Source: a virus
Virus genome (UHGV): UHGV-1488451
Reading direction: 5' to 3' (one strand)
Length of the DNA stretch: 38,329 bases
The notes under the pieces were generated by a model that did not search any database, was not told where the DNA came from, and worked only from the letters and a program-made list of their open reading frames with translations. The position numbers and the translations under genes are program-made. This document shows positions 3,011 through 38,329 of the stretch, in pieces (within the stretch, counting starts at the first letter, position 1; the number at the start of each line of letters is the position of its first letter).

Positions 3011-4135
3011 ATGGCATCAATCAAACGATATGACACCGCCAAAGGAACAAAATGGCGCGTCCAATACCGCACCCCAGACGGCAAAAGCCGCACCAAAACC
3101 GGATTCCGCACCAAAAGCGAAGCCGAAAGATGGGTGGCCACACACACCACCTCCATCATCAATGGCACCTGGGTTGACCCCAACGCAGGCAACATAACCA
3201 TCCAGGCCCTCGGCACACGATGGATGGAAACCCGCACCCACCTGAAACCCTCAACAGCACGCGTCGAAGCCCTCGACTACAAAAACCACGTCCTCCCACA
3301 CTGGGGGCACCGGCGCATCAAAACTATCAAACCGTCGGAAGTGCAAGCCTGGGTGTCAGCCAGCGCCCAATCACCCTCAACCACCAGGCACCACCATGCG
3401 ATCTTGTCGAAGATTCTAGACATGGCCGTCCTCGACAACCTCATACCCGCGAACCCGGCTAAAAGCGTCACCCTGCCCCGCAAGAACAACCCAACAAAGG
3501 TGTACCTCACCATCAGCCAATTGAAGCGCCTAGCGGACGAGGCAACGGTTCGGGGTGAGCTGATCTGGCTGTTGGGAACCACTGGCCTTAGGTGGGGTGA
3601 GGCCGCTGGCTTGCAGGCGCAAGACTTGGACCCGCTGAACGGGCGCATCAGGGTGGCGAGGAACGCAGTAACGGTAGGGGGCGAGGTGGTTGTCGGAACC
3701 CCGAAAACTCATGAGCGGCGCACAGTGGCTTGCCCTGGGCATGTGATGGGGATGCTTGAAGATGCGGCACGTGGTAAGCCGCGCACCGGGTGGTTGTGGG
3801 AGTCGCCTGCGGGCGGGCCTATGCGGCTTCCGGGGAAGGGTTCTTTTTTTCATTCGGCGTTGGGGCGCGTGCGCGCCGAAGACCCGTCGTTTCCTTCGTT
3901 GACTATTCATGGTCTTAGGCATGTGGCAGCCGGACTTTTAGTTTCGGCGGGGGCGAATGTGAAGGTGGTGCAAAAGCAGCTTGGACACAAGTCTGCGGCT
4001 ATGACGTTGGATGTGTATGCGGAGTTGTTTGACGATGACTTGGATGCGGTGCGTGGGGCGTTGGATGCTTTGGTGGGTTCTTTGGGGAATGTCGTCAAAT
4101 TGTCGTCAAATCGGGGTTTTGGTGACGCGGTTTAG
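3011..4135 (+). CDS. int: Tyrosine integrase (phage integrase family)
   Basis: 374 aa; catalytic-domain motifs GLRWGEA, HGLRH, LGH...TLDVYAELF (R, H-x-x-R, H, Y); AAGGA before ATG. Confidence 0.9.
   Translation: MASIKRYDTAKGTKWRVQYRTPDGKSRTKTGFRTKSEAERWVATHTTSIINGTWVDPNAGNITIQALGTRWMETRTHLKPSTARVEALDYKNHVLPHWGHRRIKTIKPSEVQAWVSASAQSPSTTRHHHAILSKILDMAVLDNLIPANPAKSVTLPRKNNPTKVYLTISQLKRLADEATVRGELIWLLGTTGLRWGEAAGLQAQDLDPLNGRIRVARNAVTVGGEVVVGTPKTHERRTVACPGHVMGMLEDAARGKPRTGWLWESPAGGPMRLPGKGSFFHSALGRVRAEDPSFPSLTIHGLRHVAAGLLVSAGANVKVVQKQLGHKSAAMTLDVYAELFDDDLDAVRGALDALVGSLGNVVKLSSNRGFGDAV
4088..4110 (+). repeat. Direct repeat AATGTCGTCAAATTGTCGTCAAA (two TGTCGTCAAA half-units), copy 1; candidate integrase arm-type binding site
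   Basis: Exact 23-bp copy also at 4298-4320; the two copies flank the tRNA-like core. Confidence 0.45.
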
Positions 4136-4156
4136 GGGTTTGACCTTGGGTTTTTT

Positions 4157-4200
4157 TGGTGCCCCCAGTCGGACTCGAACCGACTTTCTGGGTTTTGTCC
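4157..4200 (-). other. attP-like core: 3' half of a tRNA gene (T-arm, acceptor 3' strand, discriminator, CCA) on minus strand
   Basis: Minus strand reads GTCGG-TTCGAGT-CCGAC-TGGGGGC-A-CCA; no matching 5' acceptor strand upstream, so not a complete tRNA. Confidence 0.55.
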
Positions 4201-4297
4201 ATACCGTTGTTTACCTGCATGTTTGCTGGTCAAGTGCGGTTTTTGCCGTGTAGCAACCCTGTTGAATTTGCGTGTATTTACGTGTGTTTTAGTGTGA

Positions 4298-4320
4298 AAT
4301 GTCGTCAAATTGTCGTCAAA
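4298..4320 (+). repeat. Direct repeat AATGTCGTCAAATTGTCGTCAAA, copy 2
   Basis: Exact match to 4088-4110. Confidence 0.45.
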
Positions 4321-29232: not shown

Positions 29233-29364
29233 GATTAAAGCTCCTTCCAGAAACCAGGTCTTGCGCGCGCGATACCCCCAAAAACGAGTGGGGGGAGAGG
29301 ACAGGCCCACCCGGCTCAAATGTCCTGGTCAGGTGTGCTGGTGATTTGCTACCCCCTACCGTTG

Positions 29365-29649
29365 TTACCAGGTTTGGCTGGGTTGTCCGAGGGTTGGTTG
29401 GGGTGGTTGGTTGTGGCGTGCGCGGTTGCAGTTGGTGTGTGTTGGTTTGATGTTGTTGGGGTCGTTTTCGAGGTGTGGGTGTGTGCTTGTGGGGTGGATG
29501 TGGTCGAGGTCGCATGCGTTTGGGGTGTGTGGTGGTGCGGTGTAGTCGATTGGTTGGCCGCAGAGGTAGCAGGGGGTGTTGTTTTCTGCGTGTTGTTGGC
29601 GGAGTTGTTGGCGGAGTTTTTTGTTTGCGCGGGTTTCTTTGAATGGCAT
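29365..29649 (-). CDS. HNH endonuclease
   Basis: CYLCGQPIDY...CDLDHIHP...HLENDPNNIKPTHTNCN (two Cys pairs, H-N-H); adjacent to terminase genes. Confidence 0.8.
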   Translation of the reverse strand: MPFKETRANKKLRQQLRQQHAENNTPCYLCGQPIDYTAPPHTPNACDLDHIHPTSTHPHLENDPNNIKPTHTNCNRARHNQPPQPTLGQPSQTW

Positions 29650-29676
29650 GGGGTTTTGGGGGTTGATATGGGTAAA

Positions 29677-29700
29677 CCCCCATGCTTTTTGGCATGGGGG
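29677..29700 (-). terminator. Strong GC hairpin (CCCCCATGC / GCATGGGGG) upstream of HNH gene
   Basis: 9-bp perfect stem, 6-nt loop; only short T-runs flank it, so terminator versus attenuator role is unclear. Confidence 0.3.
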
Positions 29701-29740
29701 TTGTCTGCGACTGAGTTTAGCAGTGTGGTTGCCCGTTTTG

Positions 29741-30310
29741 TCAATGTGACAGTTTTTTATCTATGTCTGTTTGTGAGTATTTGAGTGTGCCGTCGAGGCT
29801 GTGGTGTGCTCTGATGTGTCCTCGTGCTCTCCAGTGGTGGATTTGTTTGCGGGTGATGTTGTGGCCTTGTTGCCATGCGTGGTCGATGGCTTGTTGGATG
29901 GTGAGCCATTGGCCGTGGGGGTTGATGGGTGGTTCGCGGTGGTGGCGTTGGGTGAGGTCTTGTTCGATGGTGCGTAGTCCTTGTTCGATGGTGTCGGGTT
30001 CGGGGTGGTGGTTGATGAGGTGGGTGTTGTGGCTGAGCCAGGTGCACCAGCGTGAGAGTGGTTGGTTGGCTGCGCTGGCTGGGAGGTGGATGTTTGCGTG
30101 TTTGAGGATTTGGTGGATGATGTCGCGGAGTTCGTCTTCGGTGGTGATTTTGTTTTCGAGTTGGGTGAGGTTGAGGGGTGGGCGTGGTCCGGGGGTGGTG
30201 TGGCCTCCTTCTTTGGGGATGGTGGAGTCGATGTGTGTGGGGTGGAGGTCGGTTTCGAGTTCGTGGGTGAGGGTGGCGAGGTTGGTGAGGATTTTGTTGA
30301 TGGTGATCAT
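29741..30310 (-). CDS. Hypothetical protein, possible DNA-binding
   Basis: 189 aa; strongly A+C-biased codons (T/H/N/Q/P-rich protein). Confidence 0.4.
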   Translation of the reverse strand: MITINKILTNLATLTHELETDLHPTHIDSTIPKEGGHTTPGPRPPLNLTQLENKITTEDELRDIIHQILKHANIHLPASAANQPLSRWCTWLSHNTHLINHHPEPDTIEQGLRTIEQDLTQRHHREPPINPHGQWLTIQQAIDHAWQQGHNITRKQIHHWRARGHIRAHHSLDGTLKYSQTDIDKKLSH

Positions 30311-30474
30311 GGTTTGGGTTCTTGGAGTTCTTTGGTGGCTTTGGTGGTGAGGATGATGGAGCCGTAGGTGTCGAAGGCTAGGTATCCGTGGTCGATGAGG
30401 ATGTTGGTCATGGTGTGGTTGATGCGTTTGCCGGAGGCGAAGCGTCGGAGGGCGTTGATGTGGTTGGGGGTCAT
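30307..30474 (-). CDS. Small hypothetical protein
   Basis: ATG at 30474 (MTPNHINALRRF...); the His-rich extension to 30558 in the ORF track is probably compositional artefact. Confidence 0.35.
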   Translation of the reverse strand: MTPNHINALRRFASGKRINHTMTNILIDHGYLAFDTYGSIILTTKATKELQEPKP

Positions 30475-30574
30475 TGGTTTGTGTCTTTCTTGGTGGTGAG
30501 GTGGGTGATTGTTCCGGGGTGGGTGAGGGTGCTTATGGCGGTGGTGATGATGATGCACGCGATGATGGTGAGGG

Positions 30575-31108
30575 TCATTGTTCGTCTTTCTGGATTTCGT
30601 ATCGTTCTTCTTGGTGGTCGCGTTCGAGCCTGTCTGCGCGTTCCCAGTCTGGGAGGGTGTCGTCGTTGGTGTCGTCGTGGGGGTAGGGGTGTGCCATGTG
30701 GGTTTCTTTCTGGGTGAGGTGGATGTGTGCGCCGGGTGTTTCGCCGGGGTGTGCGTAGCGTTTGTGGGTTATCCAGGTTGTGATTTGGCTGTCGTCGTTG
30801 ATTGCTCCTGATTGGGTGAGGGCGTCGCCGAGGGCGCGTTGTAGTTTGTCGAGGTCGGGGGTTTTGGTGTGTGGTTCGGTTTTGTTTTTGAGGCGTTTGG
30901 GGCGGGGGAAGATGAAGATTGCGGTGATGGTGATTGGTCCTTGGATTGGGGGTTTGTGGTTGTGGGTGAGGGTTGCGGTTTGGGTGAGGGCTTTGCGCCA
31001 GGCGGGTAGGTGTTTGCTGGATTCGATACTGCGGCCGCCGCCGATGTAGCGTTTGGAGCCTTGGGGTCTGGGGGTGCCTGGGGTGAAGAATGTGAGCGTT
31101 TGGGTCAT
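30575..31108 (-). CDS. rusA: RusA-like Holliday junction resolvase
   Basis: Motif TPDLDKLQRALGDALTQSGAINDDSQI...K matches the RusA Asp-rich catalytic core. Confidence 0.75.
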   Translation of the reverse strand: MTQTLTFFTPGTPRPQGSKRYIGGGRSIESSKHLPAWRKALTQTATLTHNHKPPIQGPITITAIFIFPRPKRLKNKTEPHTKTPDLDKLQRALGDALTQSGAINDDSQITTWITHKRYAHPGETPGAHIHLTQKETHMAHPYPHDDTNDDTLPDWERADRLERDHQEERYEIQKDEQ

Positions 31109-31238
31109 TGGAACATGCTTTCTATGTGGGGGTGGTGGTTTGTTTTGGGTTGGGGGTGGGTGTTATTTTCGCGCGTGAGGCTTGGGGCGGGTTGGTGGCG
31201 CCTGGTGGCCTGTTGGGCGGAGCGTGGTCACAACAGTC

Positions 31239-32426
31239 TCAAAACGGGGGTTTTGCGGCGTTGGAATTGCCGAACCATACACGACTACCCGCCGAGGGGT
31301 TTTCGGGCGTGTGAGGCGGCAATGAGGGCGGATTTGGGGCATTCTCGTTTCGTCTGGCCGCCCGGAGTTGAGCGTATTCCGGTGGGAGGTCCACCGGCTC
31401 GGGGGGTGTCCGATGGTCGCATTTGCGGGCTACGCTGCGGTTTTCCGGCGAATCCGGGTCGATTCCTCGGGTCGGGACCAGGACAAAACCCCGCTCGTCG
31501 CACCACGGGCAAGCGTCGATTTCGGCGCGTCGTGCCTGCTTGGCTTGGGTTTTCTGGTCCTGGAACCAGCGTCTGGCGGCTGCGCAGGCCCCGCAGGGTG
31601 GCACCTGGTCGCGTGGCAGCCCGGCGTGTTCGCGGCATCGGGGGTCATCCGGCGTGGACCAATCGGCGGGTGTGTCGCCGGTCACGGTTGGGGTGTTGGG
31701 GGGCGGCGCGTCAGCGGCCGCCGAACCCTGGTCGAAACTCGGGGCGGGGGCGTGTGCGCTTGCGCTCTCGCTCGGAAGATTTTCTCTCTTAAGCTCCCCT
31801 TTATTGGTATTGGTCGGGCGCAGGTCCGGGCGCGCGCGTCGCGCGCGAGGAGTGGACATGCGGGTGGCGTCCGGGGTGGACATTTCGGCGTTTTCGCTGG
31901 TAGAGGAAAAATCGCTCGACCTATTCGGATTCATTTCGTTTTCATTTCGATTTCGATTCGCGTTCGATTCGGATTCATTTCGATTTCGATTCGGATTCAT
32001 TTCGCGTTCGGATAGGTCGAGCCTCCCTGTTTCAGTATCGGCGTTGCAGCCCCTCCTGCGGGCCTTTGACTCGCGTTCAATACGGCGTCGATTCGAGCGT
32101 TGTTCGCGGGTCTGCTGATAGTCCCCCCAGTCCCTAAAAGTGAACACGATCACACCATTTTCATTGACTGATTGCGTCCACAACCCCGCATCAACAAGCG
32201 CCTGAATCTGAACCGCGCTCCCCCGCAAAGCCCGCACCTGCTGACGAGGAATCACCCCATCAGTCTCAAATTCAGCGCACCAACTCCCAGCCTTCGCCCA
32301 TAAACCCACCGCAGCATTAGGAAGGGAGGAAATCTTAGGATGCGCATGAAAACGGTCGTCAATCATGAACCAGCTCATTACGCACCGAGTCCAACATTCA
32401 AGCAGACAACACTGATTGACCTGCAC
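31239..32426 (-). CDS. Replication initiation (O-like) protein candidate with internal iteron-encoded low-complexity linker and C-terminal Cys cluster
   Basis: N-terminal folded-looking domain, central NPNRNRNESESNANRNRNENEMNPNR linker encoded by the tandem repeats, C-terminal CGAC...CPWC; start uncertain (32426 GTG, 32378 or 32366 ATG). Confidence 0.5.
   Translation of the reverse strand: MQVNQCCLLECWTRCVMSWFMIDDRFHAHPKISSLPNAAVGLWAKAGSWCAEFETDGVIPRQQVRALRGSAVQIQALVDAGLWTQSVNENGVIVFTFRDWGDYQQTREQRSNRRRIERESKARRRGCNADTETGRLDLSEREMNPNRNRNESESNANRNRNENEMNPNRSSDFSSTSENAEMSTPDATRMSTPRARRARPDLRPTNTNKGELKRENLPSESASAHAPAPSFDQGSAAADAPPPNTPTVTGDTPADWSTPDDPRCREHAGLPRDQVPPCGACAAARRWFQDQKTQAKQARRAEIDACPWCDERGFVLVPTRGIDPDSPENRSVARKCDHRTPPEPVDLPPEYAQLRAARRNENAPNPPSLPPHTPENPSAGSRVWFGNSNAAKPPF
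31914..32020. repeat. Iteron-like array: about 8 tandem copies of an 11-bp unit (nnTTCnnTTCG family) flanked by imperfect inverted repeats; candidate origin of replication
   Basis: Seen directly: GATTCATTTCG / TTTTCATTTCG / ATTTCGATTCG / CGTTCGATTCG ...; 11-bp period; flanks CTCGACCTATTCGGA and TTCGGATAGGTCGAG. Confidence 0.5.
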
Positions 32427-32545
32427 GTTTCCTTATCCAGGAACAAGCCGTACCGGCGAACAGCGAAAATGGCGATGCCTTGCGGCGTGAACAAATTCAC
32501 CCATTCAGGTTTCGGGGCATTCATTTCCCTTATCTTTCATCAAAA

Positions 32546-32573
32546 CCACCCCCACAACACACGCTGCGGGGGT
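32546..32573 (-). terminator. Stem-loop (CACCCCC / GGGGGTG) with T-run on minus strand downstream of SSB gene
   Basis: 7-bp G/C stem; plus-strand AAAA at 32541-32544 gives UUUU after the hairpin on the minus transcript. Confidence 0.4.
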
Positions 32574-32590
32574 GGCAAAAACAAATACTG

Positions 32591-33028
32591 TTAGAACGGA
32601 GGTTCGCCCGTATCCTGCGGGGTGGCCGGGGGTGAAGAACCCCACGCGCCCCCCTGCTGAGAAGGCGCATACCCAGGGCGCGCCTGCGAACCAGCAACCT
32701 CAACATCAGCCACAGACTGCAACGCATCAACCGCCATGACCTTAATCATCGACCGTTGACTACCGTCCTTGGCTTCCCACTCCTCAGTGACCAGCTTTCC
32801 AACCACCGTGACCTTAGAACCCTTCCTCAGGTAGGACATTGGTTCAGCAGCCTCACCCCACAAGGTGACTTGGATGAACAACTGGTTTGTGGTCTCCCAC
32901 TCACCAGTCGGGGTTTTCCTGCTGTCGGAGCACGCGAGGCGGAAGGTGCTGCATGGTTTGCCGTTGGAGGTGAACCGGAGTTCAGGGTCGCTGACCAGTC
33001 TTCCGGGGAAATGCTGGTACGGAATCAT
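32591..33028 (-). CDS. ssb: Single-stranded DNA-binding protein
   Basis: N-terminal GRLVSDPELRFTSNGKPCSTFRLA (OB-fold SSB signature), Gly/Gln-rich tail ending in acidic-aromatic tip EPPF. Confidence 0.85.
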   Translation of the reverse strand: MIPYQHFPGRLVSDPELRFTSNGKPCSTFRLACSDSRKTPTGEWETTNQLFIQVTLWGEAAEPMSYLRKGSKVTVVGKLVTEEWEAKDGSQRSMIKVMAVDALQSVADVEVAGSQARPGYAPSQQGGAWGSSPPATPQDTGEPPF

Positions 33029-37481: not shown

Positions 37482-37727
37482 TTAGATGTTGACAAGATCG
37501 AACCACCCGACCAGGTAGTCTGAGTCGCCCATCATGGTTGCAATGCGGAGGGCGTCGGCGGCGGTGACGTATTTCCGGCCATGCCTAAAAAGCTCCAAAT
37601 CCGATACCTGGTATCCGAGTGTGGCCGCCAACCGTTCATCGGTGTTCAGGTTCAGCATGTGCGCAATGTTTTCTAGCGCGCCGCGCCGGAATCGGTATTT
37701 AGGCGCGGTCATTGTCATCACTGTCAT
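37482..37727 (-). CDS. Small HTH DNA-binding protein (Cro/XRE-like candidate)
   Basis: 81 aa; HTH-like segment RLAATLGYQVSDLELFRHGRKYVTAADALRIA. Confidence 0.5.
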   Translation of the reverse strand: MTVMTMTAPKYRFRRGALENIAHMLNLNTDERLAATLGYQVSDLELFRHGRKYVTAADALRIATMMGDSDYLVGWFDLVNI

Positions 37728-38329
37728 TGGCTTCTCCTTTGTCTTCCTTCTCTGGTTTCCATGATTCGGCGCGAATGGCGATCATGTCGTGGATTGCTTG
37801 GTATTCGGCTTGCCAGCGTTCTTGTGTGGCTTCGTCGTGGCGCTTCCAGTAGTTGGCGCGGCGTTCGGCGACGGCTTGCATCATTGTGGTTAGGGTGCCT
37901 TCCCAGCATCCGATGCAGACGAATATTTCATCGGTTCCGGTGTGCGCCGCAGTTACCCAGCGGCTTTCTACTCCTGCAGGGCCAGCAACGAAGATGTGTT
38001 GTTTTTGGAACACCTCCGCGTTGCCGGACACCCGCGCGTTGCCGGACACCCACGCGTTGCCGGACACCCGCGCGTTGCCGGACACCCACGCGTTGCCGGA
38101 CACCCGCGCGTCGCCGGACACCCACGCGTTGCCGGACACCCACGCGTCGCCGGACACCCACGCGTCGCCGAACACCCACGCGTCGCCGAACACCCGCGCG
38201 TCGCCGGACACCCACGCGTTGCCGGACACCCACGCGTCGCCGAACACCCGCGCGTCGCCGGACACCCACGCGTTGCCGGACAAGTTCGATTCCTTTTCAA
38301 TGAAACCGCCGAGTTCGCCTTTATCCACA
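37699..38329 (-). CDS. C-terminal portion of hexapeptide-repeat protein (about 15 repeats plus about 95-aa C-terminal domain); 5' end continues beyond window end
   Basis: ORF-track GTG at 38328 is an edge artefact; the frame remains open to the window edge and matches the N-terminal part at window start. Confidence 0.6.
   Translation of the reverse strand, partial: VDKGELGGFIEKESNLSGNAWVSGDARVFGDAWVSGNAWVSGDARVFGDAWVFGDAWVSGDAWVSGNAWVSGDARVSGNAWVSGNARVSGNAWVSGNARVSGNAEVFQKQHIFVAGPAGVESRWVTAAHTGTDEIFVCIGCWEGTLTTMMQAVAERRANYWKRHDEATQERWQAEYQAIHDMIAIRAESWKPEKEDKGEANDSDDNDRA
38008..38277. repeat. 18-bp tandem repeat array, about 15 units with A/G and C/T variants, encoding [W/R]V[S/F]G[D/N]A hexapeptides
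   Basis: Direct reading; protein NAWVSG DARVFG DAWVSG ... NARVSG. Confidence 0.9.

Follow-up and report, generated by a model that had tools for sequence, protein, structure and literature searches.

A candidate replication origin in the linker DNA of an actinophage initiator gene, with an 11-bp repeat array

The initiator gene and the repeats in its linker

The virus genome UHGV-1488451, analysed as a single window of 38,329 nucleotides (nt; the term denotes this whole stretch of DNA throughout), is that of a temperate, Corynebacterium-type siphovirus. Its putative replication initiator gene (Table 1) carries an array of short tandem repeats in the DNA that encodes the linker between two folded domains, and this linker DNA is examined here as a candidate cis-acting origin of replication. 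A first-pass annotation, made from the letters of the sequence alone, had described the gene as one of 395 amino acids (aa). Its location stands, but homologues and gene calls begin with MSWF at the ATG of position 32378 (M[ST]WF across the homologues), so the protein is 379 aa long. It matches the profile of phrog_2447, 'replication initiation protein', over residues 17-345 (E 3.7e-41), a function label that is an annotation with no experiment behind it. Neither Pfam nor NCBIfam gave an above-threshold match for the protein, and a sequence-profile search of the PDB returned nothing significant.

The predicted fold of the N-terminal domain is nearest to the winged helices of ORC and RepA_N initiators. 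Between the long basic helix that follows this domain and the Cys/His-rich C-terminal domain lies a linker (aa 120-235) that AlphaFold 2 (AF2) predicts to be disordered, with predicted local distance difference test scores (pLDDT) below 50 in the part encoded by the array. The array, the boxes and the other repeats considered below all fall within this disordered segment, between two confidently folded domains.

The tandem 11-base-pair (bp) units that had been reported at this position are present as described, in eight copies at a spacing of exactly 11 nt. Tandem Repeats Finder recovers the same DNA as 4.0 copies of period 22 at 31923-32010 (score 106) and as 6.8 copies of period 11 at 31930-32004. 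On the coding strand the units read, in order, CGAACGCGAAA, TGAATCCGAAT, CGAAATCGAAA, TGAATCCGAAT, CGAACGCGAAT, CGAAATCGAAA, TGAAAACGAAA and TGAATCCGAAT. Columns 2-4 (GAA) and 7-10 (CGAA), which make up 7/11 columns, are invariant in 8/8 units, and all 18 unit deviations are confined to columns 1, 5, 6 and 11, a confinement reproduced by 0/200,000 random permutations. The 11-bp pattern has no other occurrence in the window; when two consecutive units were sought with up to 2 mismatches, 7 matches were obtained, all within the array, and 0.02 would be expected from shuffled sequences.

Autocorrelation within the array is 0.70 at lag 11, 0.74 at lag 22, 0.76 at lag 33 and 0.84 at lag 44. There is a higher-order period of 22 bp (4 copies) above the 11-bp unit, and lag 6 (0.62) reveals a further sub-period of 5/6 nt that places a CGAA core about every half turn; iterons are expected to measure ~17-22 bp and to be spaced by whole turns. 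The two 44-mers of the array show 7 differences, found only in the four variable columns, for which the probability is (4/11)^7 = 8e-4. The array contains four copies of the heptamer CGAAATG, spaced by 22, 33 and 11 nt; with one more copy in the downstream anchor box, the minus strand has five between 31881 and 31998.

As the earlier annotation also held, the array encodes an N/R/E-rich linker (peptide SEREMNPNRNRNESESNANRNRNENEMNPNR, in the minus-strand open reading frame (ORF) 31239-32426) and is bracketed by imperfect inverted repeats, the 14-nt arms of which are 93% complementary with 81 nt in between. The idea that the inverted repeat forms a cruciform or a structured RNA was dropped, as single-strand DNA and RNA folds of 31900-32035 were no better than those of shuffled sequences. 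Insertion of a 109-nt element bounded by the inverted repeat, resembling a miniature inverted-repeat transposable element, is also unlikely, since there is no target duplication and relatives carry older insertions at the same site.

The array has a GC content of 40%, compared with 61% for the gene, and its duplex stability falls in the lowest 1-2% of window segments. The 100-nt segment starting at 31901 ranks eighth in the window for low stability, and in the ~2 kb around the array no other 100 bp is as unstable. Strong intrinsic bending would not be expected of the array, because it contains only short runs of A (2-4 nt), one every 5-6 nt. At a distance of 35-70 bp downstream of the array are boxes of the type found throughout the family, where ATGTCCAC occurs twice (31852-31883), these being its only copies in the whole window. 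Beyond the boxes follow an alternating-CG near-palindrome, a degenerate remnant of a pentamer repeat and an A/T-rich patch of ~37% GC (manual count). Easily melted, A/T-rich DNA, in the form of the array and of this patch, thus adjoins the candidate binding sites.

Table 1. Features of the initiator gene and its linker DNA (window positions unless a locus is named)
Feature	Position	Strand	Basis or remark
Putative replication initiator gene, 379 aa	31239..32378	minus	phrog_2447; ATG at 32378; mechanical ORF reaches GTG 32426
N-terminal winged-helix domain, aa 1-90	32109..32378	minus	predicted structure, fold comparison
Long basic helix, aa 91-119	32022..32108	minus	AF2 helix; RKSRERK-like stretch conserved in family
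Inverted repeat, right arm, 14 nt	32009-32022	none	repeat search
Array of eight 11-bp units YGAANNCGAAW	31923-32010	minus (coding)	repeat finding, pattern scan, autocorrelation
Inverted repeat, left arm, 14 nt	31914-31927	none	repeat search
Anchor box CGAAATGTCCAC, family motif GAAA(A)TGT[CT]	31876..31887	minus	family comparison
Second ATGTCCAC box, 24 bp from first	31852..31859	minus	direct repeat D3
Alternating-CG near-palindrome (CG)4 A (CG)4	31825..31851	none	inverted repeat I2, sequence
Degenerate (CCCGW)n pentamer remnant CGCCCGGACCTGCGCCCGA	31814..31833	minus	family comparison
A/T-rich patch and G-run AATACCAATAAAGGGGAGCTTAAGAGAGAAAATCTT	31776..31813	none	same arrangement after pentamers in relatives, by eye
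C-terminal Cys/His-rich domain, aa 236-350	31329..31673	minus	AF2 pLDDT 84-96
Initiators with swapped N-terminal domain	L082 3001-3996; L083 3001-4032		shared C-terminal domain

Linker DNA across the initiator family

Homologous loci were gathered by protein identity (8 loci) and through the N-terminal domain (66 viral contigs). The non-redundant set comprises 54 genes of at least 200 aa, and the family loci total 292 kb. A DNA search with the initiator gene against 50,697 phage records (~65% sensitivity) gave no match, and a protein-pattern scan of genome contigs found no relatives.

Nearly all homologues have, immediately behind the basic helix, a cluster of short boxes, the first of which is usually GAAA(A)TGT[CT]. 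The sequences of the boxes differ by lineage, and include GTGAC/TGTCAC, AAATGTCCCC together with GGGAGTCCCC, GGACG/CGTCC, and GAACGTTCGC palindromes. Boxes occur in direct and inverted orientation and in two reading frames, so that they encode, for example, GNV or EMS. After the boxes comes a tandem repeat with a 5-bp period, usually (CCCGA)4-5 or (CCCGT)n, which encodes PDPTRPDPT, and an A/T-rich patch with a G-run is next after these pentamers. In 39/54 genes the pentamers, as (CCCGW)4-6, constitute a short-loop G-quadruplex motif on the template strand. They reside in the linker at +380..+470, for example at 430-459 in L004 and at gene nt 431-455 in Gordonia phage GMA1 (locus L224). Other repeats of 5-bp period are found in the same place, namely CCAAC in Mycobacterium phage Cerasum and AATCC/GATCC in L006.

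The repetitive character of this DNA can be expressed in numbers. Locally repeated 8-mers cover 0.48-0.50 of the interval +350..+450, counted from the start codon, in the 54 homologues, compared with a background of ~0.09, and the coverage is 0.47 and 0.32 when the pentamers are masked. When both strands of the 292 kb were searched, arrays of at least three CCCGW pentamers proved to lie in the linker and on the coding strand in 33/33 cases; 34/44 anchors in coding orientation are likewise in the linker. The choice of codons within the repeats is also unusual for the genes that carry them. Specifically, the Arg codon in P[TS]RP[DGV] is CGA in 25 instances, CGT in 10, CGG in 1 and CGC in 0, which amounts to CGA or CGT in 35/36 as against 28% elsewhere in the same genes, where CGC accounts for 45% of Arg codons. 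Within the boxes, Asn of xNV is encoded by AAT in 26/28 cases (29% elsewhere) and Glu by GAA in 14/15 (54% elsewhere).

Because of this codon bias, the use of two frames and both orientations, and the specificity for strand and position, we conclude that constraint, or continual regeneration, acts on the boxes and pentamers of the family at the level of DNA and not of peptide. The case for such constraint on the 11-bp array is weaker, and consists only of the invariant cores, which persist despite rotation of the reading frame, and of low polymorphism.

Some initiators with the same C-terminal domain have a different front half (Table 1). In P0019 and P0023 the N-terminal domain is unrelated (MARIRTIKPEFW...) and the linker repeats are different, with CGGCGGGTTCCGCCGG present twice and (GGAACAGG)3, then TAATAAGGGGG. 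Their DNA resembles that of the window gene only from gene nt 656 onward, and the C-terminal domain has 84-88% DNA identity. As a different N-terminal domain is accompanied by different repeats, the N-terminal domain and the linker repeats are therefore inherited as one module. Covariation of box type with N-terminal clade was left out of the evidence, since physical linkage alone would yield it.

A candidate origin and competing explanations

The anatomy of the locus, the conservation at the DNA level of the elements neighbouring the array throughout the family, and the modular pairing of N-terminal domain and linker repeats are established, and comparative anatomy lends good support to the placement of a putative origin inside the initiator gene. 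We propose that the segment 31776-32022 is a cis-acting replication origin in the linker DNA of the initiator and that the array is a functional part of it, and we give this reading a probability of about 0.5. We infer the origin activity itself, which protein binds what, and where the DNA is unwound. The winged-helix N-terminal domain and the basic helix would bind the boxes, that is, the anchor CGAAATGTCCAC and the second ATGTCCAC. The N-terminal domain would then oligomerise on the boxes and open nearby DNA of low stability, and the Cys/His-rich C-terminal domain would recruit replisome proteins of the host, a step that we propose because no helicase or primase gene was found in the phage. 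The 11-bp array would belong to the origin as an accessory part confined to this lineage, with four further CGAAATG half-anchor sites at multiples of 11 bp. It probably provides auxiliary, weak sites for the initiator, a melting tract, or both.

This arrangement has well-studied counterparts. In lambda and Stx phages, iterons and an A/T tract are found within the central part of O, and Stx phages with 2 extra iterons have a linker that is longer by 13 aa; the Stx iterons have also been subjected to synonymous recoding (PMC7466680). The first-pass annotation had likened the window gene to lambda O/ori, and as anatomy the likeness is upheld, because the linker position carries repeats conserved at the DNA level family-wide. 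Other features shared with the O genes of lambda and Stx phages are the encoding of an interdomain linker by repeats in mid-gene, an A/T-rich tract that adjoins the sites, lineage-specific extra repeats that lengthen the linker, a position of the module beside recombination genes, and a presumed need for host replisome proteins. In contrast, the window protein has no match to Phage_rep_O (PF04492; one homologue reaches E 0.032, below threshold), the phage is without a P-like helicase-loader gene, and its host is actinobacterial. Moreover, lambda ori is built of four 19-bp iterons, unlike the anchored boxes, 5-bp-period pentamers and 11-bp array of the window.

A similar organization is known for plasmids of the RepA_N type. 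The rep gene of pSK41 has four Rep boxes in its centre, the linker encoded by this origin is dispensable, and the C-terminal domain binds DnaG; in pPR9, the N-terminal domain and the origin have been swapped as one module (PMC5703833). The window family differs from RepA_N (pSK41, pTZ2162) in that none of the 19 members scanned matches PF06970 and that generic winged helices match the fold at least as well. RepA_N plasmids come from Firmicutes, whereas the window is from an actinophage, and they have iterons semi-palindromic about a poly-A tract (PMC7145576), which the window elements do not resemble. Among mycobacteriophages, an origin within or adjoining repA has been proposed, by analogy with lambda, for the extrachromosomal cluster A prophages Miko and Jeeves; their RepA is of a pMSC262-type family, the authors found no repeats, and these prophages are plasmids (PMC7157519), whereas the window phage has an integrase-like gene. 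The embedded-origin arrangement itself is already known.

The N-terminal domain is homologous to that of PHROG 2447 proteins, the 'replication initiation protein' of SEA-PHAGES, in Gordonia, Mycobacterium, Microbacterium and Arthrobacter phages (536 phage records). Cultured members share the layout of boxes and pentamers, as in Gordonia phages Zitch (gp59) and GMA1 (gp64), both with (CCCGA)5, Microbacterium phage Appa (gp42, (CCCGT)4) and Mycobacterium phage Cerasum (gp68, (CCAAC)5). They differ from the window in that the 11-bp array is present in none of those examined, and their annotation is by homology. Lytic replication origins of actinobacteriophages are essentially unmapped, and in the literature searched no paper was found that maps an origin in the PHROG 2447 family or describes the pentamer repeat. 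If our proposal is correct, a single sequence rule, in which a winged-helix N-terminal domain is followed by anchored boxes, a 5-bp-period repeat and an A/T patch, would find candidate origins in hundreds of sequenced phages of Mycobacterium, Gordonia, Microbacterium, Arthrobacter and Corynebacterium. As GMA1, Zitch, Appa and Cerasum are in culture, the idea of an origin is directly testable. New replicons for actinobacterial genetics might also become possible, and the array would illustrate the acquisition of accessory repeats by an embedded origin at the price of a longer initiator linker, as in Stx phages.

Base composition changes within the gene. The + strand is 76-79% G+T across 29,250-31,250, and the minus-strand genes supported by homology in this block (HNH, phrog_12885 and RusA) have A or C at 94-98% of third codon positions. 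Within the initiator gene this share is 24% for the N-terminal domain, 54% for the linker and 64% for the C-terminal domain, and the terminase and portal genes, which are encoded on the same strand, have 22-26%. Given this shift from 24% to 94-98%, a change of regime runs through the initiator gene. The block has a sharp boundary at ~29,300 and its other boundary at 32,050-32,120, and C>T plus A>G changes on the + strand would generate such a pattern. Throughout the family, GC skew on the coding strand is lower downstream than upstream of the initiator gene (41/48 family loci; mean -0.117; sign test 6e-7), with the step at about +200..+400, at the linker. The initiator gene is a compositional boundary family-wide.

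A number of findings tell against the proposed origin with its functional array. The array is an insertion that is absent from 16/19 aligned homologues, and its restriction to close relatives with 95-97% DNA identity makes any test of conservation weak; pattern scans of viral, genome and metagenome collections located it only in the near-identical L012, L151 and L163 and in L001/L002. Its 22/44-nt higher-order structure looks like the result of recent duplication, and in the commonest variant (P0001, 158 member sequences) a core position of unit 2 is changed, CGAA to CAAA. The pentamer element of the window is itself degenerate, whereas 33-42/54 relatives, depending on the strictness of the pattern, have it intact. 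In addition, the least stable DNA of the genome lies elsewhere than the array, and the inverted repeat has no exceptional single-strand fold (z -0.45 and -0.99). Repeats can build up neutrally in a disordered linker, where slippage can keep short repeats perfect without selection. The origin could thus be in the gene but have its functional elements limited to the ATGTCCAC boxes, pentamer remnant and A/T patch, and the array could be a product of slippage and duplication tolerated in a dispensable linker whose array-encoded peptide is predicted to be disordered. The two Corynebacterium-type relatives with different, irregular insertions at the site of the array (L003 and L006) would suit this explanation, which we regard as unlikely, though worth serious attention. 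It is opposed by the distribution of variation: the 18 differences among units and the 7 between the 44-mers (8e-4) all avoid the GAA/CGAA cores, the unit number is constant at eight in all five relatives of 95-97% identity, and polymorphism is the lowest of any segment of the gene, with 2/88 nt polymorphic in the array against 14/130 nt in the immediate flanks (2.3% versus 10.8%; Fisher P = 0.018) and 11 sites in the 270 nt of the folded N-terminal domain. Selection at the protein level cannot explain the conserved columns, because the 11-nt period rotates the reading frame. At the other extreme, the first-pass annotation had taken the eight units for iterons, that is, for the primary sites of the N-terminal domain set on one helical face. 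The regular 11-bp phasing, a 22-bp higher-order period typical of iteron length, the invariant cores and the presence of CGAAATG in both the array and the family anchor box would agree with this idea. However, the boxes that travel with the N-terminal domain have different sequences and are downstream of the array, relatives with 50-60% identical N-terminal domains have no such array, and the argument from a single helical face was a deduction that the 5/6-nt sub-period undercuts, since it sets the CGAA cores on alternating faces. As the array is a lineage-specific insertion and the boxes of the family lie downstream of it, the units are at most candidate binding sites of the initiator, and we consider the strict iteron explanation improbable.

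Strand asymmetry raises a different objection to the origin proposal. Cumulative keto skew peaks locally at 32,120, and both the keto and the GC curves reach their global minimum at ~29.3 kb rather than at the candidate origin, so that the polarity of the boundary is terminus-like by the bacterial leading-strand rule. The embedded origin anticipated by the first-pass annotation is thus borne out in part: a putative initiator, a winged helix, a disordered linker and family-wide DNA repeats are all in place, but the polarity of the skew is not of the origin type. Skew in phages is often due to influences other than fork direction, and we treat strand composition as ambiguous and count it neither for nor against an origin. 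Taken at face value, the skew would favour a true origin elsewhere, for example at ~29.3 kb, with the linker repeats serving as host-protein sites, as a regulatory site or as a hotspot of module exchange. The sequence TGTCCAC agrees at 7/9 positions with the actinobacterial DnaA box, TTGTCCACA, mosaic junctions are found in or after the linker, and the N- and C-terminal domains differ sharply in third-position composition. Yet the box sequences vary by lineage (TGTCAC, ATGTCCCC, GGACG, GAACGTTCGC), unlike what one conserved host factor would require, and the other repeat candidate of the window, an 18-bp array at the window ends, encodes a hexapeptide repeat. Location between a DNA-binding domain and a C-terminal domain, furthermore, matches two experimentally proven precedents (PMC7466680, PMC5703833), and we judge it very unlikely that the linker repeats are no origin. 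A composite of several of these ideas is hardly probable either: the short-period repeats of the family would be an essential, undescribed origin element, the 5.5/11-bp CGAA array would replace a decayed canonical copy of it, and the break in composition would record replication-linked mutational asymmetry that starts or ends here.

Neighbouring genes and other repeats

The initiator gene has genes for a YqaJ exonuclease, RecT, a single-stranded DNA-binding protein (SSB) and RusA as neighbours. Beyond the Cys/His-rich domain, the initiator ends in ...AAKPPF (31239-31260), the SSB of the phage ends in ...GEPPF (32591-32610), and several initiator homologues likewise end in PF. The PPF tail may be a tip that resembles the SSB tail and serves to recruit SSB-interacting proteins of the host. 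The SSB and initiator genes are separated by a non-coding gap of 212 nt (32379-32590), in which a hairpin is visible by eye on the minus strand at ~32548-32580, with the form CCACCCCC(13 nt)GGGGGTGG followed by TTTTGATG; its loop exceeds 8 nt and falls outside the loop limit of our scan. Because of this hairpin, the initiator gene may be a separate transcription unit. A promoter scan found none, the two terminator-like matches are both within chance, and Rfam gave no match at E<=1 for 31000-33000.

At 7383-8786 of L001, which corresponds to ~29300-30700 of the window, gene calls are opposite in strand to the homology-supported HNH and phrog_12885 ORFs. These calls are probably spurious long ORFs, because the strand is only ~10% A and hence has few stop codons.

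Perfect 11-bp tandem repeats were also met in unrelated viral, genome and metagenome contigs (L010, L011, L013-L015 and many of L084-L180). They include TTGAACACGAA and CGAAAACGAAA among others, are present in 3-6 copies and are mostly intergenic in the viral contigs inspected. As they fit the degenerate pattern but have no relation to the initiator gene, they were set aside as relatives of the array.

The ends of the window, 1-124 and 38206-38329, overlap by ~124 nt, and the assembly is therefore circular at ~38.2 kb. The 18-bp tandem array mentioned above occupies 38017-38282 with 14.8 copies. It is in frame within the minus-strand ORF 37699-38329 (continuing at 125-223) and encodes (GDAWVS)n, and it was rejected as an alternative set of iterons. 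Further repeats are located just downstream of the integrase-like ORF 3011-4135, where TGTCGTCAAAT is found twice at 4090-4111 and again at 4300-4320, and ATTTACGTGT repeats are present at 4266-4296. These repeats at 4090-4320 are candidates for attP arm sites or operators.

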